From the IMG/VR virus record IMGVR_UViG_3300024518_005076: a DNA stretch of 64,000 bases; one strand, 5' to 3'. The stretch's first letter is position 1. Every line of letters begins with the position of its first letter. A program made the position numbers and the translations under genes. Source of the DNA: a virus. Lineage: Duplodnaviria > Heunggongvirae > Uroviricota > Caudoviricetes. The notes under the pieces were generated by a model, which saw only the letters and a program-made list of their open reading frames with translations, was not told where the DNA came from and made no database searches. Positions 2,745 through 35,907 of the stretch are shown piece by piece.

Positions 2745-4526
2745 TTACGGAGTAACCGTTATATCGACATCCATACCGAAGTACTGTACTTCCAGCGATC
2801 CATATATCGGGAAATTGAAACCAGAAGTCCTCAGATTACGAACATTGGCGTCAGATTCCGGTCCAGAGCATGTGGTTGCGGGAACTTCCCAGTTTATATC
2901 TACGCCCTGCCTGATCCGAGACTCGGATGCTCCGGCATATGCAAATGAAATAGGACTGAGTGATTCTGGACCAATTGCGGTTGTTGGATTTCTACATCCA
3001 GTAAATAATCCCGCTGAAGGAACAGGAATATCGCACGAACTGAGATACCTGAACAACATTTCGCATGTCACCTCAGGGCCAGTTACACTCATTTCAAGAC
3101 TTACACATGGATCATAAGTGATTCCGACTGTTGTAATTCCTGCGCTAAGTCCATGCTGTAATAAGACTATGGCTCTTGGATCGATCCCTACGCTTGTTGT
3201 GAACAATGTGAAAAATTGTCCGCCTATTCCACCAGTAAACTCGAAATCAATAGACCCGAGATCGAGCGAATCCGCACCGGTCGCTGTGACGGTGGATCCA
3301 ACAAGCCCTTCAAGCAAAGCAACTAATTCACCGATTGTATCAGTTTGATTGACTGTAACTGGACCAAGCTGGCCCCCTCCAAACGGAGTGAATCCAAAGC
3401 TGATAGGAACACTTGGATCTATAAAGTCTCCATCCAGCCTGAATGTCTCATTGAGTGCGTTGGGGCTCAAATCTACGTCCAGGCTTCCTGTGTAAAGTAA
3501 GCCACCACTTACCCTGGTGATGGGTATTGTTATTCCGTTCAGCTCTGCCGGGGAATTTGTTCCTGATATGGTTACGTCAAGGTTTAATTCGTTCCGAAAG
3601 GCGCACAGACACCTCTCTGTATACCCTACGTTATGACAAATGCCAGACACGGCCATTGTTTCACGATACGTACCTGTAGATATGGGCGTGTCCCCTTTAT
3701 CCCAAGTTCTTCCGAGACCGCTTCCTGTCAGGTCCCACCATGTAGAATATCCAAATACATAGCCGACTTTTGTGATCGTGGGCGGATCTGGCTCGGGATA
3801 GCAATGAAGGTCCAGTCCTGTGTCCCCAAGCGATCCGTCTCCGTTCAGAATTAAAGGTGCGGCCTGTGTTGTCAGATGCCAGCACCTGTTGAATTGCTTG
3901 AATACAGAGACGCCCCAGAATCGATCTCCATCCTGATCCCAGACTGTTCCCCAAAATGGCACTGCCCTTGTTAGATCAGGATCATGATCCGTATCAACGG
4001 GGTTTGGTGTGAATCCACCAGCGCCTGTTATGAGGCGGTAATACTGAGTAGGGGACAAGCCTGGCTCAAGTCCATGTCTTACGTTTGCAAGCGCACTTAG
4101 GCCTTCCAATCTGTGAGCTTCATATTCGCTGGATGGGTCTATCTGGATATCGACCTTTGGGAAGAAGTAAACACCACAACTGAATTGTGTTCCGGATGTG
4201 AATGTCATATCTACGAGAGCACAATCAGTAGTTCCAACAAAATCAACCCTCTCAGTAAAGTCAGTTACAGAGAACGAATCAACCGTAGCTCCGAACCCGA
4301 AAGACTCATAATCAAACAGCGTACTCGCTGGCGTTCCATTCCATGTTGTGAGTGGAACAGTCCATTGGTGATTCAGGGCAGGGGGCGACAAGACCTCCAC
4401 TATATCTTCAATGCAATTACCTGGAGGCCCCTTAAAGCCACAGCAACACTCGCAGTTTGCTCCTTTGTTTCTTTGGGGCATGATTATTCCTCTGCATCGG
4501 GTATAGTCAATGCGGTCGTACTGCAA
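2745..4526 (-). CDS. Tail/baseplate structural protein (593 aa)
   Basis: Long ORF downstream of tape measure and distal tail genes; Gly/Thr/Asp-rich. Confidence 0.65.
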   Translation of the reverse strand: MQYDRIDYTRCRGIIMPQRNKGANCECCCGFKGPPGNCIEDIVEVLSPPALNHQWTVPLTTWNGTPASTLFDYESFGFGATVDSFSVTDFTERVDFVGTTDCALVDMTFTSGTQFSCGVYFFPKVDIQIDPSSEYEAHRLEGLSALANVRHGLEPGLSPTQYYRLITGAGGFTPNPVDTDHDPDLTRAVPFWGTVWDQDGDRFWGVSVFKQFNRCWHLTTQAAPLILNGDGSLGDTGLDLHCYPEPDPPTITKVGYVFGYSTWWDLTGSGLGRTWDKGDTPISTGTYRETMAVSGICHNVGYTERCLCAFRNELNLDVTISGTNSPAELNGITIPITRVSGGLLYTGSLDVDLSPNALNETFRLDGDFIDPSVPISFGFTPFGGGQLGPVTVNQTDTIGELVALLEGLVGSTVTATGADSLDLGSIDFEFTGGIGGQFFTLFTTSVGIDPRAIVLLQHGLSAGITTVGITYDPCVSLEMSVTGPEVTCEMLFRYLSSCDIPVPSAGLFTGCRNPTTAIGPESLSPISFAYAGASESRIRQGVDINWEVPATTCSGPESDANVRNLRTSGFNFPIYGSLEVQYFGMDVDITVTP

Positions 4527-5491
4527 GCCGGGAATGGCTCGTATTTACCAGAGTTACTGTCAAGGAAGCAAATGCAGTAGACCTTGTCTGCTATGGTCAG
4601 GGTTTCGTCGTAATTAATCAGGTCAACATCGGAAACATAAGCCCAGTCCCCATCTCCGTTGTTTGCGTACTTGGCGAGTGTTCCAGATGCTGGCTGGAGT
4701 ATCCCATCAACATCGATTGAAGCTACGCCAAGACCTCCTCGTGTGTATCCTCGTATTACGGCAGCTGCAGAACCCAGGACTATGTACTCTCCATCAACCC
4801 ACAGAATGTTGACCAGATCGCCCTCCGAAAATGAGGCGTTGCTCCTGTTGACAACCATCCTGTAATCAGTGAGCACCTTGGTTTCCGTCACGTACATGTG
4901 CTCGAACGGAGTCCACAGCCATATGAATCCCTTGATGAGTTCCTCTGTGGTCATTGGATCAATGATTGATGGGATATCCTCGTAAAGCTCTATCTCTGTT
5001 TCGTCATCAGCGACTATATTCTCAGAACTGCTGACCGAATACGTTCCATCTCTCGTGTCGGTCATGTCTTCAGTGTCTCTTAGCCAGACTTCATGCCTGT
5101 CAGTAAATTGTGCTGCATGCTGTCCTGCGATCTTGATCTTCTTCGTCACTATGTCGACGGAAGTGATTTCAAACCTGCGCTCTGCGGCCTGGTCGTCAGG
5201 GCGACCGGCTTCGTAGTCAAACTCCTGAACCTCGACTGCTGCCGTTGTGTATCCGTATGTGGTTCCTATCCCGGCATCCAGATTACCCAACAGCTGAGCA
5301 GTGAGTATCTTCTCAGGGCCTTCTGTTCTGGGTGGGATCAGATTCACAGTTCCCGTGGTCCGGCCCACCTGTCCACCAGTAAGCTGGTTGAATCTGCGCA
5401 GGCTGTCACTAATCTGGCCCTGATAGTCTGCACTCAGAACCTTGTAGATTGAGTCGCCAGAGTTAATTTTAGGCAGCTGACTCTTGGCCAT
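4484..5491 (-). CDS. Tail structural protein (335 aa)
   Basis: ORF between distal tail protein and baseplate gene, same strand. Confidence 0.6.
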   Translation of the reverse strand: MAKSQLPKINSGDSIYKVLSADYQGQISDSLRRFNQLTGGQVGRTTGTVNLIPPRTEGPEKILTAQLLGNLDAGIGTTYGYTTAAVEVQEFDYEAGRPDDQAAERRFEITSVDIVTKKIKIAGQHAAQFTDRHEVWLRDTEDMTDTRDGTYSVSSSENIVADDETEIELYEDIPSIIDPMTTEELIKGFIWLWTPFEHMYVTETKVLTDYRMVVNRSNASFSEGDLVNILWVDGEYIVLGSAAAVIRGYTRGGLGVASIDVDGILQPASGTLAKYANNGDGDWAYVSDVDLINYDETLTIADKVYCICFLDSNSGKYEPFPACSTTALTIPDAEE

Positions 5492-16182: not shown

Positions 16183-17607
16183 TTAGCCATTCACCAGCTG
16201 GTCGATAAGACCAAAACTGTTTTCGTGGCGAGGAACCGCATCGATGTAGTGCGTACCACGCATCGTGAAGATGCCAGAAGCAAAGTTGCTTCCATGGCTG
16301 TCCGTGACCTTAACCTCCATCATCGGAGACCGGCCAATGAACAACTCAGAGGGGACGCCACCCAGAACGTAAGTCAGGTCCGTGCCTGAACTCTTCGCTC
16401 GGATGTTGTTAACCTGCGTACCGGTGAACACTGGGTGTCCGCCGATCGATTCCCGAACTCCGCCGTCGCCATAAGCGAGAGCAGCAGCACGGAACTTCGG
16501 CTGACCCTGGGAATCTTCGCGATACTTCAGGGCTGCCCAGATCAGATTCCGCATCGTGAGGAACGTGCCCGTGCCGACAGGAGCGTTGTTGTCCGCGATC
16601 TTCGCGAGCAGCAACTCAGGATCCTTGGGCTCAAGCGTGTCGCCATTGGCACCAGTTGTGCTGGCGGTATGGGTCTGGATTCCGGAGTACCGGATCAGGC
16701 CCTGGATGTATGCTCCACCCGGACCATCACAAATGTCCTGATCGACGTTCAGGGCGATGTCCTTGGTGATTTCATCTCGAACAAAAGCGTCTGCAGACAC
16801 GGTCGTCGAGAATCGCATGAACTCTTCGGTCATCTCAACCAGGCCGTTGTACTTTTTGGCCTGCAGCAAGACGTCCGCAGTTGTCGGAGTACTTTCACTC
16901 ACAGCTTCCGATTCCGCGTGAGCCGTAATCGTGACAGCGCCGGTCACTTTCGGGTAGCGAATCTGGCCCTGTTGCGGCATCGGGACTTCCCGAACGCCCG
17001 GAATCCGACCCCAGAGGGAGCTGGCTCGCAGGAATTCAATCAGTTCACCCTGCTGCGGGAAATCAACAAACGTCCCACCAGTCGTGGCGGTACGATATGT
17101 CAAATCCTTGCTCAGTCGCTTGGACAGCCAGGCCGCTTCATCCGGGTCGAAACTGCCCAGATTCGTGTTCATCTGACGCCACTCTTTGGTCAGCTCGGAG
17201 CCATCCTGCTCCATATAAGCTGAGCCGATCGGAACCATGAAGGCACCGCCGACCGTCTGGCCTTTGCTCTTGGATTCCTTGGCCAGCTTCTGGCAGAAGT
17301 CCATTTCGAGCTTGCAGTCTTCAGTATACTCCTGCTTCGTGGCGTGAAGGACAAGTCCCTTGGCCAGGCGGGAGAAGCTGAATGCTCGGCTCGTGTTGAC
17401 AGATTCGCCAACCGACATCCCTGGAGCACCTTGCATCCACGGAGCCTGTGCTTTCGAGTGCTCATCGACGGTCTTCGCAAGCGACTCCACATTGGCAGTC
17501 ATCTTCTCGAAGCCATCAGCCAGATCTTCGATGCTCTTCGCGATGAACTCAGCAGGATCAGTCGCGCTTTCTTCGGTCGCATTGGCAGCGGTATTGGTGT
17601 CAGCCAT
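16183..17607 (-). CDS. Major capsid protein, HK97-fold family (start at MADTNTAANA...)
   Basis: 475-aa ORF with typical Phage_capsid composition; preceded by scaffold, protease-position and portal genes. Confidence 0.8.
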   Translation of the reverse strand: MADTNTAANATEESATDPAEFIAKSIEDLADGFEKMTANVESLAKTVDEHSKAQAPWMQGAPGMSVGESVNTSRAFSFSRLAKGLVLHATKQEYTEDCKLEMDFCQKLAKESKSKGQTVGGAFMVPIGSAYMEQDGSELTKEWRQMNTNLGSFDPDEAAWLSKRLSKDLTYRTATTGGTFVDFPQQGELIEFLRASSLWGRIPGVREVPMPQQGQIRYPKVTGAVTITAHAESEAVSESTPTTADVLLQAKKYNGLVEMTEEFMRFSTTVSADAFVRDEITKDIALNVDQDICDGPGGAYIQGLIRYSGIQTHTASTTGANGDTLEPKDPELLLAKIADNNAPVGTGTFLTMRNLIWAALKYREDSQGQPKFRAAALAYGDGGVRESIGGHPVFTGTQVNNIRAKSSGTDLTYVLGGVPSELFIGRSPMMEVKVTDSHGSNFASGIFTMRGTHYIDAVPRHENSFGLIDQLVNG

Positions 17608-17624
17608 GACAGTTTCTCTCCAGT

Positions 17625-18317
17625 TTAGGTGTCCTGGCCGCACGCGCGGGCCATAGAGCAGTTGATTTCGTCCAGTCGTTCCGCCAGACCAGACATCGAA
17701 GATGTGACCGTAGTCAGACTCTTAACAACCTCAGTTGTTGAGTCCGCCTTACGGAGCTTCTTGCGTTCCCGCATAATTTCGACTGCTTTTGCAAGCGGGT
17801 CGATCTTCTTCTCTTCCGTCTTCGTCTCAACATCGTCGTTTTTAACGATGGTATCCGAGGTCTCGTCATCCCCATCCTTGGGTTCAGTCGCAGGCTCTTC
17901 CTGCTTGACGAGACTTTTGATCTCTTCGAAGCTCTTCTCGATTTCTTCCTTCTCGACCTTCATGGTGGACGCAACAATGTTGACTGCGCTTTCCAAGTCG
18001 GACATTCTCTCGCCGAGCTTGTCCATTGTGGTTCTCAGTCGAATTCCAACCTCAGGCTCGGCGTCTTCATCCCAGTCAGAATGATGGATATCAATTCCGA
18101 CATGCTCTTTGAGAAGTTCAATCAACGGCTGAGCCTGGTCAGCAGTCAGGCCTTCGATGCTCTTCAGGATCTCGACAGCCTGGCTGATTTCATCCATGGA
18201 CGTGTCCTCTTTTGTCAGTACAACAAAATCCGAACCTGGCACAGCGCCTTTTCGGACGAGGCTGACCTCTCCGATTGAGACATCGCTCAGGCGTCGTCGT
18301 TTGTTTGTTTCAGACAT
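17625..18317 (-). CDS. Head scaffolding protein (acidic, coiled-coil)
   Basis: Glu/Asp/Lys-rich helical ORF directly upstream of capsid gene. Confidence 0.55.
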   Translation of the reverse strand: MSETNKRRRLSDVSIGEVSLVRKGAVPGSDFVVLTKEDTSMDEISQAVEILKSIEGLTADQAQPLIELLKEHVGIDIHHSDWDEDAEPEVGIRLRTTMDKLGERMSDLESAVNIVASTMKVEKEEIEKSFEEIKSLVKQEEPATEPKDGDDETSDTIVKNDDVETKTEEKKIDPLAKAVEIMRERKKLRKADSTTEVVKSLTTVTSSMSGLAERLDEINCSMARACGQDT

Positions 18318-18963: not shown

Positions 18964-19707
18964 ATGAGTGAAAGGTTAGATTCGGTCGCAATCAAGTTCC
19001 GCGTATCGAACGAACTGTCAGTCCTGCTTCAGGACGCTGCTGGAAACAGACACCTTGATAAGGCAGAAATGATAAGGCAGGTACTGGCCTCGTGGCTAGG
19101 TCGTCCCGATACAGCACAGCTCACAAACTCACTGAATATTACGTCTCGAAAGGCTATGGCCAGGGTAGATATCGGGTTAGAGAAACTCAGGCAGGGTATG
19201 AAATCTGGCTGGAAAGATCTGTCTTCCGGAATTATTGATCTTCTGAACTGTGGCTATGTCCGGATGGCGGACAGATACTGGAGATTCGCCAACAACCTCA
19301 ACTTGAAGAGTCGGCATCTTGAGGGTACTAAACCTCTTGCCGACATGAAGCTCATGATTAAAGAGCGAGCGCTCTATCTGGAGGAGAGCCTGTTCCCCCA
19401 ATGGATCTCAGGCGAACCAAGGACTGTTGGACTCTTCGTGATCAACAGAAAGCTCAAGAAGGGAACTCGCGAGGAGCTTCTTCGTGTGAAGTCTCCCCAC
19501 GATCTCCCGCTGCTTGACGACAAAATACTGGCCCATCACCGAGTTCCGGTTACTCCGAAAATCAGTTCGCGTTATTCAGGGCCATTCGACCAACCTGAAC
19601 TGGCTTTGCCTGAGGCTGAGCAGATCCATTCTGGTCAGGTTTCTCCGGGGTTTTGCCTGCAGGATCCTGCCCTGGCTCAATCGGAATCCCAGTGTTCGGG
19701 TCAATGA
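18964..19707 (+). CDS. Ribbon-helix-helix (Arc/CopG-like) DNA-binding protein, opposite strand inside the morphogenesis operon; 3' end overlaps portal C-terminus so true stop may be earlier
   Basis: N-terminal 'VAIKFRVSNELSVLLQDAAGNRHLDKAEMIRQVLASWL' matches the RHH beta-alpha-alpha pattern; fills a 570-nt minus-strand gap. Confidence 0.5.
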   Translation: MSERLDSVAIKFRVSNELSVLLQDAAGNRHLDKAEMIRQVLASWLGRPDTAQLTNSLNITSRKAMARVDIGLEKLRQGMKSGWKDLSSGIIDLLNCGYVRMADRYWRFANNLNLKSRHLEGTKPLADMKLMIKERALYLEESLFPQWISGEPRTVGLFVINRKLKKGTREELLRVKSPHDLPLLDDKILAHHRVPVTPKISSRYSGPFDQPELALPEAEQIHSGQVSPGFCLQDPALAQSESQCSGQ

Positions 19708-20992
19708 CCTGGAAGCCAGAGATCATGACTGGCCGGTCGCCCAGCTCGCCACCGAACGGCTTCAGGTTCATAAGAAGCTCACGAACCTCGTCCGGAGTGA
19801 TGGCACCGCACTTCAGGCAAGTCAGAATGTTATCTCTCAAGCTTTGCTGAGAGTCGACATTGCAAGGCCCCAGTTTAATGAACAGGTTGCCAGGGAAGTC
19901 CGAGGCAAGCTTCTGGGTCAGATGCTGGGAAATGTGCTCAAGGATCGGATCCACAGTCATCTTGCAGAACTGAGTGAGCGACCCTTCCATTGAGGCACTG
20001 GTCATTCCCTCTCCGAGGCCGACCACAGACTTCGGAACACCATGAGTGGCCAAAGTGATAGACAGTGTTCTGTCCAGGCTGGAAGAGTAATCCAGTTCCT
20101 TCACGCTTCCGGAGTTGTATTGCCCGGAAAGCTTCAGGCCCGAGTGTGAGATCATCGGAGCACCCGTCTGATCCGCCATGCTGTGCTGGGCGAACAAATT
20201 GGCCCAGAGCTGGTGGACCTGATGTGGCTGGAGCCGCTTCTCGCACTCGAAAACCATGCCTGGCGCGGCAAAATTCTTGAACTGGTAGTACAGACGCCTG
20301 TGCATCTCATCTTCCAGGTCAATAGTCGTTGCAGCCGCCTTAATCGAGGGAGTTCCGTAGTATCGGCCAGAATCACTCCAGTCCAGGCTGGGATTCTTGA
20401 TATGGATCATCCACTCTGGCGGAACGACGAAGTTTTCGCCCACGGCTCCAGAGTCGATCTGGTAACCGCCGACCATCTCTGTCTCACCCGACAGGACTTT
20501 CACCCACTGAGTCGGCATTGGCCAGATTTCTCTGGGGATTCCAAACCCGTTGCGAGCCTTGTAGAGGAAAGAGTCGCCCGTCAGGAGTCTCCACCCAACC
20601 ATGTAAAACCAGAGGTCCCATTCGGTATCTACCGGGTTCACATCGCGGAGAAGCTCGACCAGCGGGTGCGTTGGGGAGACTTCTTCGGTCTTCCATGTGC
20701 CCTTCTGCTTGAATTTGCGGAAAACCTTGGCCTTTTGCATTGCGGCCATCCGAGCAATTGCTCCAATGGCGATATAGGTTGAGCCCTTGTACTGCTGGGC
20801 GTACTTGTTCCGATCTTCAACCCAGCGAGCGGGAGTTCCTGACTGGCCCAGTCGATTAGCCATTACCGGGAACTGCTGCTCAGCCGGAAACGTACGGATG
20901 TCTCGACCACGAGTCGGACCTTGAGAGAATTCAACCTCTCGGAACGAACTACCAGCGTTCTGAAGAATCGATTCCAGGTTCGTCAGGGCCAT
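19562..20992 (-). CDS. Portal protein (476 aa)
   Basis: Size, composition and position upstream of protease/scaffold/capsid. Confidence 0.75.
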   Translation of the reverse strand: MALTNLESILQNAGSSFREVEFSQGPTRGRDIRTFPAEQQFPVMANRLGQSGTPARWVEDRNKYAQQYKGSTYIAIGAIARMAAMQKAKVFRKFKQKGTWKTEEVSPTHPLVELLRDVNPVDTEWDLWFYMVGWRLLTGDSFLYKARNGFGIPREIWPMPTQWVKVLSGETEMVGGYQIDSGAVGENFVVPPEWMIHIKNPSLDWSDSGRYYGTPSIKAAATTIDLEDEMHRRLYYQFKNFAAPGMVFECEKRLQPHQVHQLWANLFAQHSMADQTGAPMISHSGLKLSGQYNSGSVKELDYSSSLDRTLSITLATHGVPKSVVGLGEGMTSASMEGSLTQFCKMTVDPILEHISQHLTQKLASDFPGNLFIKLGPCNVDSQQSLRDNILTCLKCGAITPDEVRELLMNLKPFGGELGDRPVMISGFQVIDPNTGIPIEPGQDPAGKTPEKPDQNGSAQPQAKPVQVGRMALNNAN

Positions 20993-21891: not shown

Positions 21892-22771
21892 GACAGTTGA
21901 GATTTCCCTCTTGCGGAACAACCCGCTCAATGAGGAAATCTACGGCACCGAGGATGTCGACCCTGATCTTTTAAGGTCGATTCAAGATCACGGTGTCGAT
22001 ACGCCGATTGAAGTTCTTCCGGACGGAACTATCATCAAGGGCCACCGCAGAAAGCTGCACGCAGAAGAGGCTGGGCTTACAGAGGTCCCAGTTATTGTCC
22101 GCCACGAGCTGAACTCTCCGGAAGAGGTTGGCTTCGCTCTGATCGAAGACAATCGCCACCAGAGAAACAGGACGAATATACAGAAGGTGCGTGAAATCAT
22201 GTACCTGACAGGGATGCTCCAGACCCAGAACAGAATCCGCAAGGCTACGGGGCTTCCTGTTTATGAGGCTGATGCCCATACGGACGAAGAACTTATGGAG
22301 CTTTCCGGGATGAGCCGGGAGAGCTACGAGCAGGTTGCCAGTCTCACCGAAAGCTATGCAGCCAGGTTTGGATCGTCAGCATCTCCCCAGGATGTGGCCT
22401 GTGATCACATCGGAGTCAGCAAAAAGACGTTCATGCAGGGACAGAATGCCCTAAAGACAGCAGAGGCCTGGCGGAGTGCTGGAAACGACAAAAAGGCCGA
22501 CCAGATCGAAGAGGCTCTCCATAAGGGTATCTCAACTGGATATCAGGTCGCCAAGAAGATCGGTCAGCCCGGCAAGAGGAGTGAGAAGAAAGTAATCAAG
22601 GCTAAGGCCAGCATAGAGTCGGTCATTCTCACTCTTAAGAGTATGACGGCGGCACTTCACAAGGCTCGCGTCGCCATTCCAGAATCACTGCGTGATCAGC
22701 TCGACACCATCATCAATAAAATCAATAGCATGAGGGAAGAACTTGAAAAGTCCGAACTCGACAATACTTGA
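21854..22771 (+). CDS. ParB-like nuclease domain protein (305 aa)
   Basis: N-terminal ParB/Srx pattern incl. 'IIKGHRRKLHAEEAGLTEVPVIV'; immediately precedes a DNA methyltransferase (common phage ParB-MTase pairing). Confidence 0.7.
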   Translation: MTDLKSIPEGKIETVEISLLRNNPLNEEIYGTEDVDPDLLRSIQDHGVDTPIEVLPDGTIIKGHRRKLHAEEAGLTEVPVIVRHELNSPEEVGFALIEDNRHQRNRTNIQKVREIMYLTGMLQTQNRIRKATGLPVYEADAHTDEELMELSGMSRESYEQVASLTESYAARFGSSASPQDVACDHIGVSKKTFMQGQNALKTAEAWRSAGNDKKADQIEEALHKGISTGYQVAKKIGQPGKRSEKKVIKAKASIESVILTLKSMTAALHKARVAIPESLRDQLDTIINKINSMREELEKSELDNT

Positions 22772-25022
22772 GGGCGACAGCCTGCAAGTACTCAAAGGCC
22801 TGCCTGATAACTCATTCCAGTGCTCCGTAAGCTCGCCTCCTTACTGGAATTTGCGCAACTATCAAGTCGATGGACAGATAGGGCTTGAGCCAACCGCACG
22901 CGAATTCATCCAGAATCTCGTATCTGTTTACTCAGAACTAAAGAGGGTTCTCCATCCGTCTGGTATTGCCTGGATTAACATAGGCGACAACTACGCCGGT
23001 GGAGGAAACAAGCGAGGCAAGGGTAGTCCGATATCCAGCAAACAGTCCAGTAATGCCGGATGCACTGGCCAGCTTGCGGATGTGCCAATAGTAGAAGATC
23101 TTCCACGGAAGAACATGAATGGAATGCCATGGAGATTTGCCTTTGCAATGCAGGATGACGGCTGGGTCCTCCGAGATGCGATAATTTGGCAGAAAAAGAA
23201 TCCGATGCCTACGAGCCAAAAAGATAGATGTACGAACTGTTACGAGTACATCTTTCAGTTCACGAAGGGTCCAAAGTACTTCTTTGATATGGAGTCTGTG
23301 AGAGAGCCTGCCAGATATGGAGCTGGGGAGAACTTTCGGAGTTCGTCATATCTCAATGATAAGTCTCACAACAACAGCCAAGACCGGTCAGGATCGACCG
23401 AAGGAGGGATTCCGGGCAAGGGTGGAACGCGAGTGCCTAGGAACATCAGAAGCTGGGCAACCCAAGGCTATAAAGGTGCTCACTTTGCTTGTGTTGACGA
23501 GGAAACCCAGTGCTTGACCAAAGAAGGATGGAAGTCTCAAGATCAAATTAAGCCGGGTGATGTCGCCGCCCAGTACAACATGGAGAGCGGCCTCTTGTCC
23601 TGGGCTGAAGTTGAAGACGTAGCGAGATACGATGTTTCTGACCAAGACATGGTTTCTGCCGAATGCCGTGACTTGTCAATGCTTTTGACTCCTAACCACA
23701 GAACGATAATCTCCAGAAGAAGATCGAGAGGAAAAGGCCATCACCCTCCGACCATAATCGAAGCTGAGAATCTTAGTGATGGCCACAGAATACCAGTCTC
23801 TGCCGACTGGGATGATGGCGATCATGATCAAACCATGGGAGGGGTAGAGTGGGCAGAACTGATAGGATGGTACGTTGCGGAAGGGTACGAAAACAAGAAA
23901 TCGTGGTCTGTGGATATATATCAAAGCAGATCAGCAAATCCGGAAAAGGTCGAGAGGATTCGGCATCTTCTGGATTACGTGGATGCCGAGTACGAAGAGA
24001 CTCAATCTGAGAGGAAATACAAAAATCGCACATGCAGCATGTCTTCATTCAGAATAACTGGTCACGCGGCCATAAAAATAAGAAGCATGGTCCCAGGGAA
24101 AAGGCTTTCTTGGTCTTATATGGGGCTGTCAGCAGAAGAGATGAGGGCTCTTGTTGCTGGACTTATTGCTGGAGATGGACACATTCGGCCAGATGATGGC
24201 CGGGTGTGCTTTATCCAGAAGTCGGACCACTGTATCGACTTGGTTCAAGCAATGGCTGTTAGGCTGGGATATGCTGTAAAGATCACAAAATCCCCTTCAA
24301 CATGGAGAATGTACCTGACTGAAAAAAGATACATTTCTCTTCGTGGTACGAATGGAAGTGGCAGGAATATATCAACAAAGAAATATTCCGGAGTTGTGTG
24401 GTGTCCAAAACTACCCCATGGAACCTGGGTTGCTAGGAGGAATGGACGAGCATTCATAACTGGGAATACTTTTCCAATTTCGCTCCCTCTATGGTGTATT
24501 ACGGCCAGTGCTCCGAAAGCAGGCGTCTGTGCTAAATGCTTCACGCCATACAAGCGAGTAGTCGAAAGCATCCGCAGGGCGACCCGTCCGGGAGAAAACA
24601 CCAAGATCAAGATGCCGGACGGATGGGACACAGGAGAGGGCGGGCACGGCAGTTTTCATCGGGAAGGCAGAGAGAAAGGCCAGTACCGTGACACAGCAGA
24701 GATTGGAAACAGAGATCCGCAACGTCACGTCACAGAAACAACCACCGTTGGGTGGGAACCTGGATGCACTTGCGATTGCGGAACTGATTTCCCAGCAATT
24801 CTGGATCCCTTCTCAGGGGTCGCCACTACAGGACTGGCCTGTTCGCGCCTCCGATGCCACTACGTGGGAATCGAACTTAATCCAGAGTATGCACAGATGT
24901 CGCGGGACAGAATCAAGGACGATCTGATCAAGGGATTCGATCCGAACCCACATGCCGTGAACCTTAATCTGGGAACTGGTATCGACTTATGTCAGGAAAA
25001 CGTGTCACAATTTAATTACTAA
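22743..25022 (+). CDS. N6/N4 DNA methyltransferase (beta-class: SPPY catalytic motif first, FSGVATTG SAM motif last) interrupted by a LAGLIDADG intein
   Basis: 'SVSSPPYWNL' near N-terminus; 'ILDPFSGVATTG' near C-terminus; 'GAHFA'+'TFPISLP' flank the insert and rejoin to match the HPAVFP motif of the second MTase at 33448. Confidence 0.8.
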   Translation: MKSPNSTILEGDSLQVLKGLPDNSFQCSVSSPPYWNLRNYQVDGQIGLEPTAREFIQNLVSVYSELKRVLHPSGIAWINIGDNYAGGGNKRGKGSPISSKQSSNAGCTGQLADVPIVEDLPRKNMNGMPWRFAFAMQDDGWVLRDAIIWQKKNPMPTSQKDRCTNCYEYIFQFTKGPKYFFDMESVREPARYGAGENFRSSSYLNDKSHNNSQDRSGSTEGGIPGKGGTRVPRNIRSWATQGYKGAHFACVDEETQCLTKEGWKSQDQIKPGDVAAQYNMESGLLSWAEVEDVARYDVSDQDMVSAECRDLSMLLTPNHRTIISRRRSRGKGHHPPTIIEAENLSDGHRIPVSADWDDGDHDQTMGGVEWAELIGWYVAEGYENKKSWSVDIYQSRSANPEKVERIRHLLDYVDAEYEETQSERKYKNRTCSMSSFRITGHAAIKIRSMVPGKRLSWSYMGLSAEEMRALVAGLIAGDGHIRPDDGRVCFIQKSDHCIDLVQAMAVRLGYAVKITKSPSTWRMYLTEKRYISLRGTNGSGRNISTKKYSGVVWCPKLPHGTWVARRNGRAFITGNTFPISLPLWCITASAPKAGVCAKCFTPYKRVVESIRRATRPGENTKIKMPDGWDTGEGGHGSFHREGREKGQYRDTAEIGNRDPQRHVTETTTVGWEPGCTCDCGTDFPAILDPFSGVATTGLACSRLRCHYVGIELNPEYAQMSRDRIKDDLIKGFDPNPHAVNLNLGTGIDLCQENVSQFNY
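23490..24467 (+). mobile_element. Intein (about 326 aa) with double-motif LAGLIDADG homing endonuclease; boundaries approximate (N-junction Cys at 23490 or 23511; C-terminal Asn 24465 followed by Thr)
   Basis: Starts Cys after 'GAHFA'; LAGLIDADG-like 'LIGWYVAEGY' and 'LVAGLIAGDGHI'; ends '...FITGN' + 'T'. Confidence 0.6.
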
Positions 25023-25911: not shown

Positions 25912-26526
25912 ATGACTCAGAAAGTAATCTCTCTGTGTGATCGCACAGGGAACATGGTTAAGCCATGGGCAGAGGCTGGATACGAATGCATCTGTGTTGA
26001 TATCCAGCATTCCATCCGAAGGACAAAAGTCAAAGGCAACATCACCTATCAGTGGGGCGACGTCCGGTCGTGGTGGCCTTTTCCGGATTGGGATATTGCC
26101 ATGGTGTTTGCAGCGCCACTTTGCACGGACCTCTCGGTTTCAGGTGCTCAAGACTGGCCCAAGAAGGGCCTGACTCGCTTAATTGACGCCCTGACTATGG
26201 TTGAATGCTGTCGTCGCATCGGAGAGTTCAGCCGAGCACCATGGATGATCGAGAACCCGGTCGGAAGACTCTCGTCCTTGTGGAGCAAGCCGGACTACAC
26301 GTTCCAGCCATGGAACTACGGAGATATGTATCAGAAGAAGACCTGCCTCTGGACGAACGAGAAGTTTGTGATGCCAGAGTTTCAGATCACAGAAAAACCA
26401 GAGGAAGTCACTCAGGATATCTGGACTATGTCCCCATCTGCTAACCGGGCCGATCTTCGGTCGGTCACTCCGATGGGATTCTCAAAAGCAGTATTCGAGG
26501 CCAATCATCGTATTAAGGCCTCGTGA
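25912..26526 (+). CDS. C5-cytosine methyltransferase-like protein, short (204 aa) with degenerate SAM motif
   Basis: 'ISLCDRTGNM...AEAGYECICVD' aligns to motif I but FxGxG is replaced; 'APLCTDLSVSG' resembles PCQ motif IV; 'IENPVGRL' resembles ENV motif VI; no target-recognition domain. Confidence 0.5.
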   Translation: MTQKVISLCDRTGNMVKPWAEAGYECICVDIQHSIRRTKVKGNITYQWGDVRSWWPFPDWDIAMVFAAPLCTDLSVSGAQDWPKKGLTRLIDALTMVECCRRIGEFSRAPWMIENPVGRLSSLWSKPDYTFQPWNYGDMYQKKTCLWTNEKFVMPEFQITEKPEEVTQDIWTMSPSANRADLRSVTPMGFSKAVFEANHRIKAS

Positions 26527-29217: not shown

Positions 29218-29835
29218 ATGGCGTCAAACTACCCGTACAGTTCTAAGACTTATTATTTCGAAGAAGGATACATGTCCAATCCGTCCTATTGGACTGGGGA
29301 CTGGGCCGTGGGCGATACAGGCGGGAACCAGGCCGAGTCTACTCCGCCACCCTATGCGAGTGTGCCCACAAGCCCCAAAGAACGGCCTGTTGTTCTGCCT
29401 CCAATGATCCGGGACAGGCTGATCTCGGGCGAAACTCCCAACCTTCTGTCACTCCCGACATCCCTGTGTACGGGTTGGAAAAAGGGCGATTTCGTCTTTC
29501 TCTGTGAGCCCATGATCTTCATTGATGATGAACTCTGTTATGCCTCAGACAAAAGCATAGTTCCGGAACACGACATCCTTCGAGGTGAATCCGCATGGGT
29601 TGGTGCTGGCGTGATGAACAGGAAGTCAGCCCGATACTGGTTCAGAACAGAGTCGGCAGAGGATTGCGAGTTAAGTTCAATGTCCGAGACTCAGTTCCGT
29701 GAACAAGGCTTCGCAGACAGGCAGGAGTTCGTTAAGTTCTTCATGGATCTGCGAGAGCTTAATCTCAGGTCGTATTCCAGAATCAAGACATTCGAACTCG
29801 TTCCGTGTGAAAAGCCAGAGGTGTCCACATGCTAA
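29218..29835 (+). CDS. Hypothetical protein (205 aa)
   Basis: ORF with GAGGAG RBS. Confidence 0.55.
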   Translation: MASNYPYSSKTYYFEEGYMSNPSYWTGDWAVGDTGGNQAESTPPPYASVPTSPKERPVVLPPMIRDRLISGETPNLLSLPTSLCTGWKKGDFVFLCEPMIFIDDELCYASDKSIVPEHDILRGESAWVGAGVMNRKSARYWFRTESAEDCELSSMSETQFREQGFADRQEFVKFFMDLRELNLRSYSRIKTFELVPCEKPEVSTC

Positions 29836-30425
29836 TGGGCTTGGGAACGGGACGCTGTGGGACCAAGAGCCTGGCTGTTCAGCTCGGCGGACTACATGAG
29901 CCAAAGCCTTGGCTTAAAGAAGAGCCTGTCCAATACAAGTGCGACAGGAATATGGACGTTCGAGATTCCCTACTGGAAAACCTGAAGGCAAGGTCCGAGT
30001 TACCAGTTCCAATCATCGTTGATCTGAAGCACAGCTATGTGATCGACCTTATCTGTGAAGTTGATCCGGAAGCAGAGTTTATCTGGATGCTCAGAGACCC
30101 TGTTGATTGTATCTCTTCGCTGTTGAATGGCGGGGCATGGACTAAAACAGACTGGCATGGAGCCAGAAAGTGGAGGCCGTTCGGAGGATGGAAAGATGAC
30201 GTGCCACGAGAGATGCGAGTCGTTCGCTATTGGATTGAGATAAACAAGATGATTGAGAAGTCTCTCATGGAAGCTGGTAAGGGTATCGAGATTTACCCGA
30301 CTGAGTCACTCACAGCCAAAGAGAACGTGTACTCCAAAAGAGACCGTATCGGGGGCGATCTGCTGAAGATTGTTCACGAAATGTGCGGCCCACTCTACAA
30401 GCAATGGATCAGAGACTACGTATGA
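29829..30425 (+). CDS. Sulfotransferase-fold protein (198 aa)
   Basis: P-loop-like 5'-phosphosulfate motif 'GLGTGRCGTKSL' and 3'-phosphate motif 'MLRDPVDCISS' (RDP...S) in canonical order. Confidence 0.55.
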   Translation: MLMGLGTGRCGTKSLAVQLGGLHEPKPWLKEEPVQYKCDRNMDVRDSLLENLKARSELPVPIIVDLKHSYVIDLICEVDPEAEFIWMLRDPVDCISSLLNGGAWTKTDWHGARKWRPFGGWKDDVPREMRVVRYWIEINKMIEKSLMEAGKGIEIYPTESLTAKENVYSKRDRIGGDLLKIVHEMCGPLYKQWIRDYV

Positions 30426-31595: not shown

Positions 31596-31817
31596 ATGAA
31601 CGAGAAAGCACTTAGGGAGCGAGAGACAGAACACTTTCTCTGTCTAGGGCTCACCATTGGAATGGCGATTGGAGGGTTGCTGGGAGCATGGGCAGCAACC
31701 AGCATCACAAATCACCGCTGGGAGAAAATGCTCTCAACAAATGTTCCGGAAGACGAAGCAGGGGGCGAAATCACTCATGAACGCCTCAATCACTTTGGCA
31801 CCATGAGGGTGAAGTGA
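31596..31817 (+). CDS. Small membrane protein (73 aa)
   Basis: ORF. Confidence 0.35.
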   Translation: MNEKALRERETEHFLCLGLTIGMAIGGLLGAWAATSITNHRWEKMLSTNVPEDEAGGEITHERLNHFGTMRVK

Positions 31818-32252
31818 CTTTCGGACAGCAGACTTGAGCAATTTGTCGATTTTGTCCTGATTTCCCTTCAATTCGTCGTAATTATGGCTCAAAACGACTG
31901 TTTTTACCCCTAATTGAGCCACATCTGATACTGTTTCTTCCAGATCGAAGGTCTCTACGAGTGCTTTTTCTATGTCTGATACCTCGTAAACCACTGTTAC
32001 AGACACAGTTACAGTCCTGCCATCGTCCGTGGTCAATACCTGAGGCGACAGATCAAGCGTCTGTCTCTTGATGGGATATCGAACTGGCTCCGACCAGATG
32101 GGCCAGTAGATATGCATTCCGGGCTCCAGAACCTTAGTTTTTCCTCTCTTGAAGAGTACACAGCCCAGATTGAACTGAACATGCAGCAATCTGGGCAAAA
32201 CAAGGCCCATATTGTGGATAATGCTGGAAATCCAGCCAAATGCACCTTCCAT
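31734..32252 (-). CDS. SPFH/band-7 domain protein (172 aa; possibly truncated)
   Basis: 'KRGKTKVLEPGMHIYWPIWSEPVRYPIKRQTLDLSPQVLTTDDGRTVTVSVTVVYEVSDIEKAL' matches SPFH core. Confidence 0.65.
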   Translation of the reverse strand: MEGAFGWISSIIHNMGLVLPRLLHVQFNLGCVLFKRGKTKVLEPGMHIYWPIWSEPVRYPIKRQTLDLSPQVLTTDDGRTVTVSVTVVYEVSDIEKALVETFDLEETVSDVAQLGVKTVVLSHNYDELKGNQDKIDKLLKSAVRKSLHPHGAKVIEAFMSDFAPCFVFRNIC

Positions 32253-32454: not shown

Positions 32455-32850
32455 CTACTTCCTATGAAGATATTTAAGCACTTTCTTGGCCGCTTTTTGA
32501 ACTTCTGTGGGATCGTCGCAGACAATTCCGCCATGGCCATCTTCGTGACAGGGTGCCTGGGCTTCTGCCTGGTAGTATTTCTTTATGGCATGCCGGAATG
32601 CCCTGCATGCCAAAGTGCCCATTCTTTCGCTGATTCGATCGATAGCGGCGTCAGATGGTCCGAGTCCGATAGGATTGTGGCTTCTAATAATGGCCTGGAA
32701 GGTCGCCCGCAGGGGATCGGCGAGTTCATTGAATTCGTTGCGCCTGTCACGAACGACCGAGAATTTATGGTCGATAAAGGCCCCAGCCAAAGCGCCCACA
32801 ACAAGCGAGCCAGCACTGGTCGCAATCAAGTGCAGGATAGTGATTGTCAC
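32455..32850 (-). CDS. Membrane-anchored hypothetical protein (131 aa)
   Basis: ORF. Confidence 0.45.
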   Translation of the reverse strand: MTITILHLIATSAGSLVVGALAGAFIDHKFSVVRDRRNEFNELADPLRATFQAIIRSHNPIGLGPSDAAIDRISERMGTLACRAFRHAIKKYYQAEAQAPCHEDGHGGIVCDDPTEVQKAAKKVLKYLHRK

Positions 32851-33070
32851 TACTGGTGCCGCCTCGCGATTTTATGTTTATGTTCAGCTTATATTAGCAC
32901 TGTTGTCAGAACAGAGCTGCGGTTTCGAAGAGAGCGGATGCATATGCCAGGACTGTCCATGTCGCCGCAACCTAACAACCAAGCTAACGGGGCGGCGACT
33001 GGCGATTCGGAAGAACAGAAACAGCCTTAATCCGCCGCTCGCGTTGGGCGGTTTGTTGGTGAGGACTCGC

Positions 33071-33367
33071 ATGACAATAGAATTTGACACGGTGACGCGC
33101 AGCCACTGCCAGCTCGTTCACTGCCACTGTGGCGGGTGCGGATTTCCAATCGGCATGGACGGCTCATGTGGTTGTGTAGAATTAAACCACCCCATCGGCC
33201 AAATTCAGACAAGCAACCTGAGCATGGCCCGGCTGGCGTCCAACTATGCCATGATGAGGCTGGCTGATTACGGACATATGGACTCTGTAAGTGCTGTCAG
33301 GGCAATTCTGGACGGCGAACCTTTCATGACTGGAGTTGCTAGAGGACGAGAAGGTTTATTTCTTTGA
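33071..33367 (+). CDS. Cys-rich hypothetical protein (98 aa)
   Basis: ATG with GGTGAGGA RBS; in-frame 3' part of an implausibly long ORF-track ORF. Confidence 0.4.
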   Translation: MTIEFDTVTRSHCQLVHCHCGGCGFPIGMDGSCGCVELNHPIGQIQTSNLSMARLASNYAMMRLADYGHMDSVSAVRAILDGEPFMTGVARGREGLFL

Positions 33368-33369
33368 GC

Positions 33370-34390
33370 CTTTGGAAAAGGAAATATCTATTGAGGATAT
33401 GCAGAAGATTGTGGACGCAAACGAGAAATTAGTTAAGGAGTTGAAAGATGGAGATAAATAAAATTTACAACGAAAATTGTCTTGATACGATGGCAAAAAT
33501 GCCTGATTGCTTTGTGGATTTAACGGTTACTTCACCGCCTTATGATAATTTGAGAGATTACAAAGGGTTTGATTTTGATTGGAAAACTATAATAAAAGAA
33601 CTTTATAGGGTAACAAAAGAGGGTGGTGTAGTAGTTTGGGTTGTTGGTGATGCAACAATTAAAGGAAGTGAAACGGGAACATCTTTTAAGCAAGCATTAC
33701 ACGCTATTGATTGTGGTTTTCGTTTGCACGATACAATGATTTACTCAAAAGCAAGTCAGCCAAGACAAAACGGGCATAGGTATGAACAGCAATTTGAATA
33801 TATGTTTGTGTTTAGTAAAGGGAAAGTTAAAATAAAAAACATTATAAAAGAACCATCTAAAAATGCAGGAAAGGTTGTCAAAAGGACTTGTAGAGATAGT
33901 GGAAAAGATGAACTAAAAAGTAGTAAAAATATTGTTTCAGACTTAAAAACAAAAGGGAATGTGTGGTTTTACGGAACTAAAAAAAACGACACAAAACACC
34001 CTGCTGTATTTCCTAAACAATTAGCAAACGACCATATCATAAGTTGGAGCAATGAAAACGATTTAATCTACGACCCATTTTTGGGAAGTGGAACAACGGC
34101 TAAAATGGCGTTACTAAACAATCGAAAATTTGTCGGGAGTGAAATATCAAAAGAGTATTGCGAAATTGCAGAGAAGCGAATCAATGAAAATCTATAAAAT
34201 CACAGACGCAAGCGATTATCTTGGAGTGTCTATAAACACCCTCAAGACGCTTGCCAACAACGGAAAGATAAAATCTTTCAAGACTACTGGTGAGCATAGG
34301 CGTTTTCGTCAGGAAGATTTAGACGCTTATATGGGAGTCGAGAAAGAGAAGAAAGAAAAGCTGACTGTGATTTATGCCCGTTGCTCTACT
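33370..34390 (+). other. AT-rich compositional island (foreign insertion)
   Basis: Sharp drop in GC versus flanking ~52-55% GC sequence; contains MTase and IS607-type TnpA fragment. Confidence 0.6.
33448..34197 (+). CDS. N6/N4 DNA methyltransferase (beta-class, 249 aa)
   Basis: 'DLTVTSPPYDNLRDY', 'KHPAVFPKQLANDHI', 'YDPFLGSGTTA' motifs; perfect AAGGAG RBS. Confidence 0.85.
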   Translation: MEINKIYNENCLDTMAKMPDCFVDLTVTSPPYDNLRDYKGFDFDWKTIIKELYRVTKEGGVVVWVVGDATIKGSETGTSFKQALHAIDCGFRLHDTMIYSKASQPRQNGHRYEQQFEYMFVFSKGKVKIKNIIKEPSKNAGKVVKRTCRDSGKDELKSSKNIVSDLKTKGNVWFYGTKKNDTKHPAVFPKQLANDHIISWSNENDLIYDPFLGSGTTAKMALLNNRKFVGSEISKEYCEIAEKRINENL

Positions 34391-34456
34391 GCTCGAGAGA
34401 CCAGCTCTTCCATTTCCATGACTGACTGGGTTTGGGCACCTCTGTCAGCGTTCTGA
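34184..34456 (+). pseudogene. IS607-family TnpA remnant: MerR-like HTH plus first residues of serine-recombinase catalytic domain, then divergent and terminated
   Basis: 'MKIYKITDASDYLGVSINTLKTLANNGKIKSFKTTGEHRRFRQEDLDAY' then 'KLTVIYARCST' resembling the YARVSS active-site start; diverges where GC returns to backbone level. Confidence 0.5.
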
Positions 34457-34985
34457 TTTCGCTCGGGTCCCATATATGGGATGCATCAAACCCTTCGTAT
34501 TCGTAGTCGTACCATGTGGATTGCGCCGCCCAAAGTCTGATATTCAGCTTTTTGCGGCGCTCTTCCATTTGCTCGGCGTAGAATTCATCAGCGATATCTT
34601 CCAGTAGTTCAGTCCACGCCGGGGACTCTCTCATTGCCTCATTCTGGGGGAGCGTCTGCCATACATCCCGGCCCAGCCGGTACTGAGGGTAAGCTCCGAG
34701 GCGAGTACTCTGGTAATCGTGCCATCTGACCCGGAAGAATGACAGAATCCGGAGTCTCCTGGCCTCCAGCTCGCAGCATTTCAGGAGCACGTCAGGATTC
34801 AGCCTGTGCTTACGGGGAATCCTGCGGAACCACGAGATGGACAACTCGCGATACAGGACCATCGAAGAAACATCTCGTTCGTCGACAGCGATATGCAGCT
34901 CGCGGCGTCTCTCTGGAACTGGACGGAACGGTTGCTCGTAGAAAGTCTCAACCGTCATCCACATTGTGAGGCAATAGACAAGCAT
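34386..34985 (-). CDS. Hypothetical protein (199 aa)
   Basis: ORF. Confidence 0.5.
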   Translation of the reverse strand: MLVYCLTMWMTVETFYEQPFRPVPERRRELHIAVDERDVSSMVLYRELSISWFRRIPRKHRLNPDVLLKCCELEARRLRILSFFRVRWHDYQSTRLGAYPQYRLGRDVWQTLPQNEAMRESPAWTELLEDIADEFYAEQMEERRKKLNIRLWAAQSTWYDYEYEGFDASHIWDPSEIRTLTEVPKPSQSWKWKSWSLEQ

Positions 34986-35020
34986 CCAGATATTATATGC
35001 GACACCGGCCAGTCCGAGCG

Positions 35021-35405: not shown

Positions 35406-35632
35406 TTATTGTCCTGTTTGTTTTCACTGGCAGTTATGCGGTACTGAGCAATCATCATCTGCACATTAGCCATAGCTAATTCGTGGCCAGTTGTCGTCTC
35501 GTGCCTTGATTGCAGAAAACCGGCAAACAGACACGCACCTCCGATCGAGGTCGTGACGTACCCAGGATCGAAGAATACCCCGACATGAGTGAGGACTGCC
35601 CCGATAAGAAACAGCATCGTGCTCTTGTTCAT
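35402..35632 (-). CDS. Small membrane protein (76 aa)
   Basis: ORF. Confidence 0.35.
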   Translation of the reverse strand: MNKSTMLFLIGAVLTHVGVFFDPGYVTTSIGGACLFAGFLQSRHETTTGHELAMANVQMMIAQYRITASENKQDNK

Positions 35633-35907
35633 GCCATATCCTTTTCATGGAGTCGGTCAAACAACTCTTGTCCGCGAGCCTTGATTTTAGCGATCACAGC
35701 ATCAGTCCACTCTGGCCATGTCTCAGGCCGGGCGTTCCATCTATTGATAGCGGCTTCCCTGGATTCCCATTTCCCCTGCAGCGCGCAACCGCATTCGCAT
35801 TGTATCAGGCACGCCGACATCACGGCAGGAACGTAGTATTCACTGTCTGCGTCGAGAACCTCAACCTGGTCATTGCCGCAGAACGGGCACGGGAGCATTT
35901 CATTCAT
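35629..35907 (-). CDS. Lar-like restriction-alleviation zinc-ribbon protein (second copy)
   Basis: 'MLPCPFCGNDQVEVL' plus 'CECGC' second Cys cluster. Confidence 0.5.
   Translation of the reverse strand: MNEMLPCPFCGNDQVEVLDADSEYYVPAVMSACLIQCECGCALQGKWESREAAINRWNARPETWPEWTDAVIAKIKARGQELFDRLHEKDMA

Follow-up and report, generated by a model that had tools for sequence, protein, structure and literature searches.

A probable fossil of a compact, cargo-carrying IS607-family transposon in a tailed-phage genome

Orphan DNA methyltransferases (MTases) of phages, such as T4 Dam and P1 Dam, are known as anti-restriction 'morons'. Transposons of the IS607/IS1535 type are recognized by the lack of terminal inverted repeats and of target duplication and by GG at both termini and in the target; at 20-60 bp from the left terminus they carry short, phased direct repeats, and their tnpB gene is dispensable (PMC6188088). 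The subject of this work is a 64,000-nucleotide stretch of DNA from a tailed phage (Duplodnaviria; Heunggongvirae; Uroviricota; Caudoviricetes; IMG/VR record IMGVR_UViG_3300024518_005076), the whole of which is called the window, and an AT-rich island within it at 33341-34392. This island is very probably the fossil of a compact IS607-family transposon which circulates among phages, and which delivered an MTase gene as its cargo. In itself, the fossil is an ordinary degraded member of a known superfamily. The following features make up the island, where lengths are in nucleotides (nt) or amino acids (aa) and ORF stands for open reading frame.

33341..33461, plus strand: left-module remnant ('A2'), matched at 85-96% nt identity by the module of more than 50 viral loci
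33448..34197, plus strand: cargo gene, intact 249-aa beta-class N6/N4 DNA methyltransferase (PF01555, phrog_67 and PDB matches)
34184..34392, plus strand: tnpA remnant, first 209 nt, up to the second base of codon 70, with intact 618-nt tnpA genes 92-94% identical in this part
34184..34456, plus strand: stub ORF as now read, 90 aa, ATG at 34184 and stop at 34456, overlapping the MTase stop by 14 nt
34187..34201, plus strand: two AAAATC motifs 9 nt apart (34187 and 34196), inside the first stub codons (ATGAAAATCTATAAAATC)

The island stands out by its guanine-cytosine (GC) content. Over the homology-defined interval the GC is 0.357, compared with a mean of 0.519 (standard deviation 0.022, minimum 0.451) for the other intervals of the same size, which gives z = -7.2. 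In steps of 200 nt, the value changes from 0.55 (33100-33299) to 0.29-0.39 (33300-34299) and returns to 0.48-0.58 beyond 34300. The 1-kb interval with the island has a GC of 0.408 and all the others of the 64 kb at least 0.476, so that this is the sole dip of its kind. The initial annotation, made from the sequence alone, had described a compositional break at about 33370-34390 and a low-GC origin in a mid-GC phage, and both descriptions are confirmed by these values, with homology borders (33341/34392) close to the estimates and a backbone of roughly 52% GC.

The borders are sharp. The left one lies at 33340-33345 in every comparison and corresponds to position 3356 of L007, the intact reference element (3216-4627); 33341-33447 of the window matches L007 3356-3461. 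Of the 50 conserved codons of a small ORF, the A2 remnant keeps 37 at the 3' end, followed by Asp-Lys and a stop (...EDEKVYFFEPLEKEISIEDMQKIVDANEKLVKELKDGDK*). The left block has lost its first ~140 nt, and with them its GG terminus, the AAAATC repeats, and the small ORF from its start through codon 13. The right border, set by comparison with full-length tnpA genes, lies at 34392, past the YARCSTA sequence, and the right end of the element is missing together with tnpA nt 210-618. No further piece of the element is present anywhere in the 64-kb window. The residual ends expected at the island borders are therefore gone, including the ~140 nt on the left, and the window copy, having neither GG terminus, does not show the IS607 terminus feature. 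Because the identical left and right junctions recur in at least eight contigs from at least five samples and three data sources, at 97-100% identity, the island is a stable trait of the phage population and not an assembly artefact.

The identity of the element is given by the ORF which overlaps the end of the MTase gene. Its residues 4-50 match HTH_17 (E 3.5e-12) and MerR_1 (E 7.5e-5), in agreement with the MerR-like helix-turn-helix (HTH) of about 50 residues noticed before. The NCBIfam model transpos_IS607 (NF033518) aligns to stub residues 8-72 on its positions 2-67 of 187 (E 1.1e-10), with a score of 41.3 bits that lies below the whole-protein cut-off of 110 bits, as expected for a one-third fragment, and PHROG 6620 'transposase' aligns to residues 4-72 on positions 2-69 of 201. 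At the DNA level, 34184-34392 is 92-94% identical to nt 1-209 of intact tnpA, and nothing downstream matches. The remnant comprises the MerR-like HTH, a linker and the YARCS motif with the catalytic serine; of the serine-recombinase catalytic domain only the first ~10 residues (LTVIYARCSTA) are kept. Since the catalytic domain beyond nt 209 is lost, the window ORF is a fragment and not a functional IS607 TnpA. The earlier interpretation as a truncated IS607-type transposase holds, and so does the loss of the rest of tnpA; the additional loss of tnpB does not, as the family never had this gene.

As it is now read, the stub consists of 70 TnpA residues and a 20-residue tail (RETSSSISMTDWVWAPLSAF), since the ORF extends 64 nt into the backbone past 34392, antisense to a convergent backbone gene. 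In the AlphaFold2 model (30 relatives), residues 1-50 are predicted in a winged helix-turn-helix topology with a predicted local distance difference test (pLDDT) value of about 85-92, and residues 71-90 fall below 50. The two AAAATC motifs at the start of the stub are candidate binding sites of the TnpA HTH, because the same hexamer is phased by ~10 bp in intact left ends, similarly to the subterminal direct repeats of IS607/IS1535 (PMC6188088). A deletion mediated by TnpA at an internal GG was considered as the cause of the 34392 breakpoint and rejected: intact copies read ACGGCA at this point, and the window reads ACTGCT, without GG.

The parent transposon can be described from its other copies. 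A scan of IMG/VR confirmed 97 loci, 80 of which were kept. Among these, 60 have an intact TnpA of ~205 aa, 12 are truncated or disrupted in mid-contig, three have premature stops and five are cut by the contig end. A database search seeded with the stub returned 347 proteins, 80-97% identical over the first ~70 residues; among the 120 matches listed, all are 56-158 aa long, and many have unrelated tails or internal deletions of one ~205-aa parent. Intact TnpA contains HTH_17 at residues 4-50 and a Resolvase domain (PF00239) at residues 62-185. The catalytic domain finds ISC1926 (6dgc, E 5e-31) as the first match in the PDB, then MJ0014, ISC1904 (3ilx) and IS1535 (6dgb).

The intact element has a size of ~1.4-2.5 kb and a fixed order of parts: GG, left end, a 50-aa ORF, one exchangeable cargo ORF, tnpA, and a right end closing in ...AAAGG. 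In unrelated contigs, the homology between copies starts sharply at ..N|GGAGGTTnTAACTGCTTATGAAAATCC and ends at ..GGAATTT(G/A)AAAAGG|, 5-10 nt past the tnpA stop. Approximately 250 nt of the left block are conserved. In the left end of L007, AAAATC is found at +22, +32, +43 (as AAATC) and +52, and related motifs are present in the right end; the spacing fits the subterminal direct repeats of PMC6188088, and the binding role is putative. The second half of the left block encodes an acidic 50-aa protein, MKVIKVTKEYFQTEDEKVYFFEPLEKEISVEDMQKIVDANEKLVKELKDG (L007 3317-3466), which is found in more than 50 loci and in every intact element. Across 52 unique copies, its diversity at codon positions 1/2/3 is 0.089/0.053/0.267, and because the variation concentrates at third positions, the small ORF is, by this substitution pattern, coding and under purifying selection. 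The protein has no Pfam match; it might be an accessory factor of transposition or an anti-restriction protein. The cargo ORF starts at the end of the left block, or within ~10 nt of it, where the small ORF ends, and its stop codon lies across the beginning of tnpA, either at +3 (ATGA) or, as in the window, at +13 (..NENL*). No tnpB is present in the family, in which homology ends right after tnpA and the 1575-bp L057/L119 unit has no such gene. Junctions of excised circles or of tandem right and left ends were absent from the retrieved loci.

Several copies depart from this simple order. HNH/NUMOD3 genes resembling homing endonucleases lie between cargo and tnpA in L033 (1804-2427), L041 (3409-3999) and L064 (3457-3999), and such nested genes represent mobile genes in a mobile element in a phage. 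In L020 and L077, the cargo slot holds 5-7 small unrelated ORFs. Among L064, L065, L067, L020 and L077 and in P0085, P0104, P0117 and P0118 of the stub relatives, the left module or the cargo gene is doubled, or the small-ORF region of a second unit is fused to a tnpA stub, which indicates that tandem or composite arrays of cargo units are formed. In P0002 (134 aa, from a 37-kb contig), stub residues 1-~88 are in frame with the C-terminal part of a different N6_N4 MTase that has AEKRINENL as its end, like the MTase of the window, which suggests a stub with a second cargo-tnpA unit immediately behind it.

The insertion behaviour of the element was derived from 58 unique left and 52 unique right junctions, of which the right ones were found by a pattern ending in ...AAGG. 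A GG precedes AGGTT in 50 of the 58 left junctions. All 52 right junctions end in GG, as did the search pattern itself; beyond it, the site is GGAGG in 41 and GGA in 51 of them. In 30 of the 52, an ORF of at least 40 aa starts on the same strand within 25 nt downstream, mostly 7-9 nt past AAAGG. By these junctions, the element usually sits in a Shine-Dalgarno-like GGAGG upstream of a phage gene and in the same orientation, leaving a Shine-Dalgarno sequence for the downstream gene.

An example of an empty site was obtained through the terminase-like gene of L057. Seven other IMG/VR contigs of the phage of L057/L058 carry a 100% identical downstream 497-aa protein and flanks more than 99% identical, without the element. 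The empty site reads ..gtttttagaaacatagaaGGacctaagtaATG (also written ..catagaaGGacctaagtaATG), and the filled one ..catagaaGG[AGGTTGTAAC...AATTTAAAAAGG]acctaagtaATG (the right part of the element also written TTTAAAAAGG). The two differ by the element and one GG, the insert being 1575 bp without target duplication. The empty site is exactly the one predicted beforehand from a GG crossover. For L007, a search through its DNA polymerase III alpha gene gave no close relative with an empty site, and among the loci already retrieved only duplicate filled sites were found. The initial annotation had left it open whether the MTase was mobilised with the IS607-like element or next to it. The first version is the one that stands: the gene lies as internal cargo between the left end and tnpA, and the whole unit is missing at the empty site.

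The cargo of the window is a complete enzyme gene. The protein covers the full N6_N4_Mtase profile PF01555 (positions 1-221 of 221, E 6e-46, 157.6 bits with a cut-off of 26.7), which bears out the recognition of a canonical MTase from its motifs, and it matches phrog_67 DNA methyltransferase with E 4e-59. SPPY at residues 29-32 (motif IV) precedes FLGSGTT near residue 212 (the S-adenosylmethionine motif I), the order of the beta class. The PDB matches are split: M.MboIIA, an N6-adenine enzyme, aligns with the whole protein, and for the C-terminal part the matches are N4-cytosine MTases (8s9m). SPPY is more usual among N4-cytosine enzymes. A Shine-Dalgarno sequence, AAGGAG (33435-33440), is provided by the left-module remnant 7 nt ahead of the MTase ATG. 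The gene has no restriction partner.

The closest relatives of this gene differ along its length. The body is 85-87% identical at the nt level to MTases in phage contigs without the left module and without tnpA, and this match stops at 34109-34127. The last ~70-90 nt (...EIAEKRINENL*) are of the element type, 83-94% identical to elements with the same cargo class. As body and 3' end have different closest relatives, cargo bodies appear to be exchanged with resident phage MTase genes by recombination, with the edges of the slot staying element-type. In the whole family, the flanks are 85-97% identical between copies whose cargo differs, and the cargo ORFs are swapped exactly from start codon to stop codon between the two conserved flanks. 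Such precise bounds indicate homologous recombination in the flanks. The following cargo classes were found.

N6_N4 MTase: 14 loci and the window
MT-A70: 13 loci
C5 DNA methylase: 6 loci
PAPS-reductase-like: 6 loci and 4 singletons
Family without Pfam, window homolog phrog_757 'DNA methyltransferase': 5 loci
D12 Dam: 3 loci
Others: Dam (PF05869), Mom (PF25680), occasional nested HNH/NUMOD3 genes or multi-gene inserts

Five DNA-methyltransferase Pfam families (N6_N4, MT-A70, C5, D12 and Dam) are thus represented, in addition to Mom and PAPS_reduct. The GC of the flanks ranges from 0.31 to 0.68, and that of the elements from 0.32 to 0.42. In species-representative genomes, the element was found only in 16 contigs of metagenome-assembled genomes (MAGs) assigned to very different phyla, one of them an archaeal bin, at 76-96% identity. 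This is no more than a hint of a broad spread, since the binning of phage contigs is unreliable. The family was not found in cultured genomes, and occurs in viral and MAG contigs only. With the region of the window itself, megablast against GenBank phages and complete Escherichia coli genomes gave no match, a distant blastn matched the MTase body only, an Rfam search of 32800-35000 returned nothing below E 0.6, and none of these searches found a cultured relative of the backbone or of the element.

The state of the locus would be explained as follows. The window copy has neither a recombination site nor a catalytic domain and would be immobile. Selection would have kept the cargo, an orphan N6/N4 MTase with its own ribosome-binding site, so that the phage is probably left with one extra, working DNA methyltransferase. 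This enzyme, predicted to be active, most likely methylates the phage DNA and would protect it from the restriction enzymes of the host. Its transcription is probably provided by read-through from upstream plus-strand genes, with the ORF at 32585..33367 as the likely source. Because the cargo stop overlaps the tnpA start, deletions which remove the transposase and spare the cargo would end inside tnpA, and it is chiefly this overlap of its first codons with the MTase stop that would preserve the 90-aa stub. If made, the stub would be a folded HTH with a disordered tail, binding at most the two AAAATC motifs at its own start. The route could be transposition followed by two deletions, or the acquisition of an internal fragment by illegitimate recombination from a co-infecting phage.

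In independent transposase stubs (P0001-P0120), the breakpoints cluster at residues 54-62, 68-73 and 76-81, with an overall scatter from ~54 to 157 or beyond. The breakpoint of the window, residue 70, is common to P0027, P0028, P0030 and P0075, and in P0095 and P0101, residue ~59 continues directly into ~157 through an in-frame internal deletion that recurs. By eye, the breakpoints match purine-rich tracts, which suggests microhomology-mediated deletion.

The window is a tailed phage of ~52% GC, in which the major head protein is encoded at 16183-17643 and the portal protein at 19562-20992. The island is flanked by two genes.

32585..33367, plus strand: upstream backbone ORF, a gene in public assemblies, with its last 8 codons and stop (RGREGLFL*) in the island
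34386..34985, minus strand: convergent backbone gene, 199 aa, no Pfam match, ending in one sense codon and a stop contributed by the tnpA remnant

Both flanking genes terminate inside the island, and the 199-aa protein does not have the 7-13 C-terminal residues of its homologs; whichever the route, the event of insertion or capture would have clipped the 3' ends of both. Several observations speak against a simple history of the proposed transposon at this locus. The downstream gene is convergent, unlike the same-strand targets typical of the family, so that in a transposition in situ the original target gene must also have been deleted. A relative of the window phage with an empty site was found neither in IMG/VR nor in the protein database searches. 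With the sigma-70 consensus, neither the window region nor the intact element L007 gave a promoter above what shuffled sequence yields. Finally, the Shine-Dalgarno bias of the junctions could reflect the survival of harmless insertions rather than the specificity of the enzyme. A promoter seen by eye upstream of the small ORF (TTGCTT-17-TATATT) was rejected, as the consensus scan did not report it and its counts equal the shuffle expectation.

In the alternative that survives best, the island never transposed here. A partial left module, the cargo and the 5' part of tnpA would have been copied from the element of a co-infecting phage by illegitimate or microhomology-mediated recombination, replacing the DNA between two convergent genes. 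Such a capture is a realistic possibility, although we tend to think that it did not happen. It would account for the loss of both termini, for the two backbone genes which end inside the island, for the convergent downstream gene and for the complete difference of relatives across the interval, and other copies (P0085, P0104, P0117, P0118 and L067) also join a tnpA stub to a small-ORF region. The same facts are explained by a normal insertion and two ordinary deletions, and in viral contigs, roughly 20% of the family copies have lost a part in situ.

The interval itself is variable. The flanking 199-aa and 109-aa proteins have no relatives in IMG/VR, and in the protein database only relatives of 54-66% identity, in which the interval between Band_7 and the 199-aa gene holds wholly different genes. 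In metagenomic relatives (L081-L086), the Band_7/SPFH gene (31734-32252, minus strand, 89% aa identity) and the 199-aa gene (53%) are kept, and the ~2 kb between them are entirely different, with six unrelated small genes in L081. Compared across these genomes, the interval with the island inside reads as a hypervariable slot of this phage group.

A second alternative concerns the stub, which could have been domesticated: selection would retain the 90-aa HTH protein for a regulatory role in binding DNA, for instance to repress the MTase or its neighbours, or to set their timing, through AAAATC. This is considered improbable. In its favour are a complete HTH domain with a high-confidence model, the two putative TnpA-binding hexamers left at 34187 and 34196, and the very many independent truncated copies that keep the HTH, most of the 120 listed matches having non-homologous tails. 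The survey was seeded with the HTH itself and finds only the copies that keep it, for which reason the retention of the HTH across stubs was dropped as a sign of selection. The scatter of the breakpoints is as for neutral deletion beside a selected cargo, the tail is an antisense read-through predicted to be disordered, and the motifs are already present at the same position in intact elements, so that nothing new was acquired.

The two remaining alternatives can be set aside. That the ORF is a native stand-alone MerR protein, excisionase or controller partner of the MTase with a coincidental YAR motif, as suggested by generic models (TIGR01764 excisionase with E 1e-10, BldC, and MADS1 below its cut-off) and by truncated relatives named 'excisionase family DNA binding protein' in several sources, is extremely unlikely, because the gene is 92-94% identical to the beginning of genes for a 205-aa transposase up to a sudden break at nt 209, with nothing downstream, the family matches run past the HTH into residues 51-72, and the part past residue 70 is read antisense to another gene and lacks any homolog, in place of the full-length conservation expected of such proteins. 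That the junctions are a metagenome assembly chimera at a repeat common to several phages can be practically dismissed: the element is indeed repeated across many phages, many loci were matched at a contig end, and L087 and L088 end inside the MTase, but the same junctions recur across the independent data sources, and a chimera at a repeat would join homologous positions and not shorten the repeat on both sides.

Further genes of DNA modification are present in the window. The island MTase is the third one and not the second, as had been thought, since two other methyltransferase-like genes lie at 22743-25022 and 25912-26526. The first (plus strand) encodes 759 aa with a split similarity to N6_N4 MTases, at the N-terminus (residues ~3-250) and at residues ~685-727, with ~430 unassigned residues in between; it is an unusually large methyltransferase-like protein, possibly fused or interrupted. 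The second (plus strand; phrog_757 'DNA methyltransferase', E 4e-64) is 25-34% identical to the Pfam-less cargo class (L032, L039, L041, L051 and L056), and because of this resemblance the same type of enzyme appears both as a resident phage gene and as transposon cargo. Five genes past the island (sixth on the minus strand), the 92-aa ORF at 35629-35907 (minus strand) is assigned to PF14354 Lar_restr_allev, the restriction alleviation protein Lar, in the precomputed annotation of identical contigs, so that the neighbourhood would hold a second anti-restriction function. The 198-aa product of 29829-30425 (plus strand), conserved in related phages, is 72% identical to that of a relative's gene with a weak Sulfotransfer_3 match.

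The transposon behind the fossil is of wider interest. We propose, with the evidence evenly balanced for and against, that it is an undescribed, phage-specific 'anti-restriction shuttle', that is, a minimal TnpB-less transposon of the IS607 type in which five properties are joined. First, its Shine-Dalgarno targeting slots it harmlessly into phage operons. Second, a single cargo slot, translationally coupled to tnpA, takes swapped DNA-modification genes (N6A, N4C/N6A and C5 methyltransferases, Mom and PAPS-reductase-like genes). Third, the cargo is renewed by recombination with resident MTase genes. Fourth, at ~90% identity, it moves between phages with a flanking GC of 0.31-0.68, in contigs binned with many bacterial phyla. 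Fifth, the hosts of the element strip the transposase and keep the cargo, of which the window would be an example. For the window, the origin of the extra methyltransferase of the phage is explained, and the adjacent 'regulator-like' ORF is understood as transposase debris. The gain and exchange of DNA-modification genes by phages, in their contest with restriction, is mostly recorded as mosaicism without an explanation; in the present case the vehicle is concrete and visible, with defined termini, a filled/empty polymorphism in one phage, targets that avoid polar effects, and a cargo made almost entirely of DNA-modification genes. In addition, the family would provide an example from nature of cargo transport by a serine transposase that has no TnpB partner, which bears on the persistence of IS607 elements. 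The small size, the ready-made cargo slot and the scarless GG-targeted insertion may be of use in engineering.

The comparison with known systems defines what is shared and what differs. Similarly to the IS607 family (IS607 of Helicobacter pylori, IS1535 of Mycobacterium tuberculosis, and ISC1926 and ISC1904 of Sulfolobales), the TnpA of the parent joins an N-terminal MerR-like HTH to a C-terminal serine-recombinase domain, in inverted domain order, and the parent element has GG at its termini and in the target, no terminal inverted repeats and no target duplication. Its short direct repeats, phased by ~10 bp and located 20-60 bp from the left terminus, resemble in their spacing those of IS607/IS1535. 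Transposases of the IS607 type are known from cultured phages (Helicobacter phages, Clostridium phage c-st, Staphylococcus Kayvirus-like phages, Nodularia and Microcystis phages, and Campylobacter CP21); they align to residues 1-192 of the parent TnpA, but are only 30-37% identical to it in aa. Unlike the described IS607 family, the element has no tnpB, and its left end and tnpA enclose an exchangeable cargo ORF together with the conserved 50-aa ORF. Unlike IS607, which is reported to need only (G)GG, the phage elements are found mostly in GGAGG sites co-oriented with the downstream gene. The window copy differs from IS607 members in having lost both termini and the catalytic domain. The searched literature contains no description of IS607-type elements with a methyltransferase cargo in phages, and this absence is not proof; judged by its sequence, the family departs from described IS607 elements in being TnpB-less and phage-borne, with a small ORF, a bounded slot for DNA-modification cargo and Shine-Dalgarno-like sites. 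As with the orphan MTases of phages, the window enzyme is solitary, without a cognate endonuclease, compositionally foreign and dispensable for the core life cycle; unlike them, it has an identifiable delivery vehicle, a transposon. By analogy only, the fixed platform with a slot for alternative single-gene cargoes recalls integron gene cassettes, and unlike integrons, it has no attC-like site and no tyrosine integrase, and the whole platform moves.

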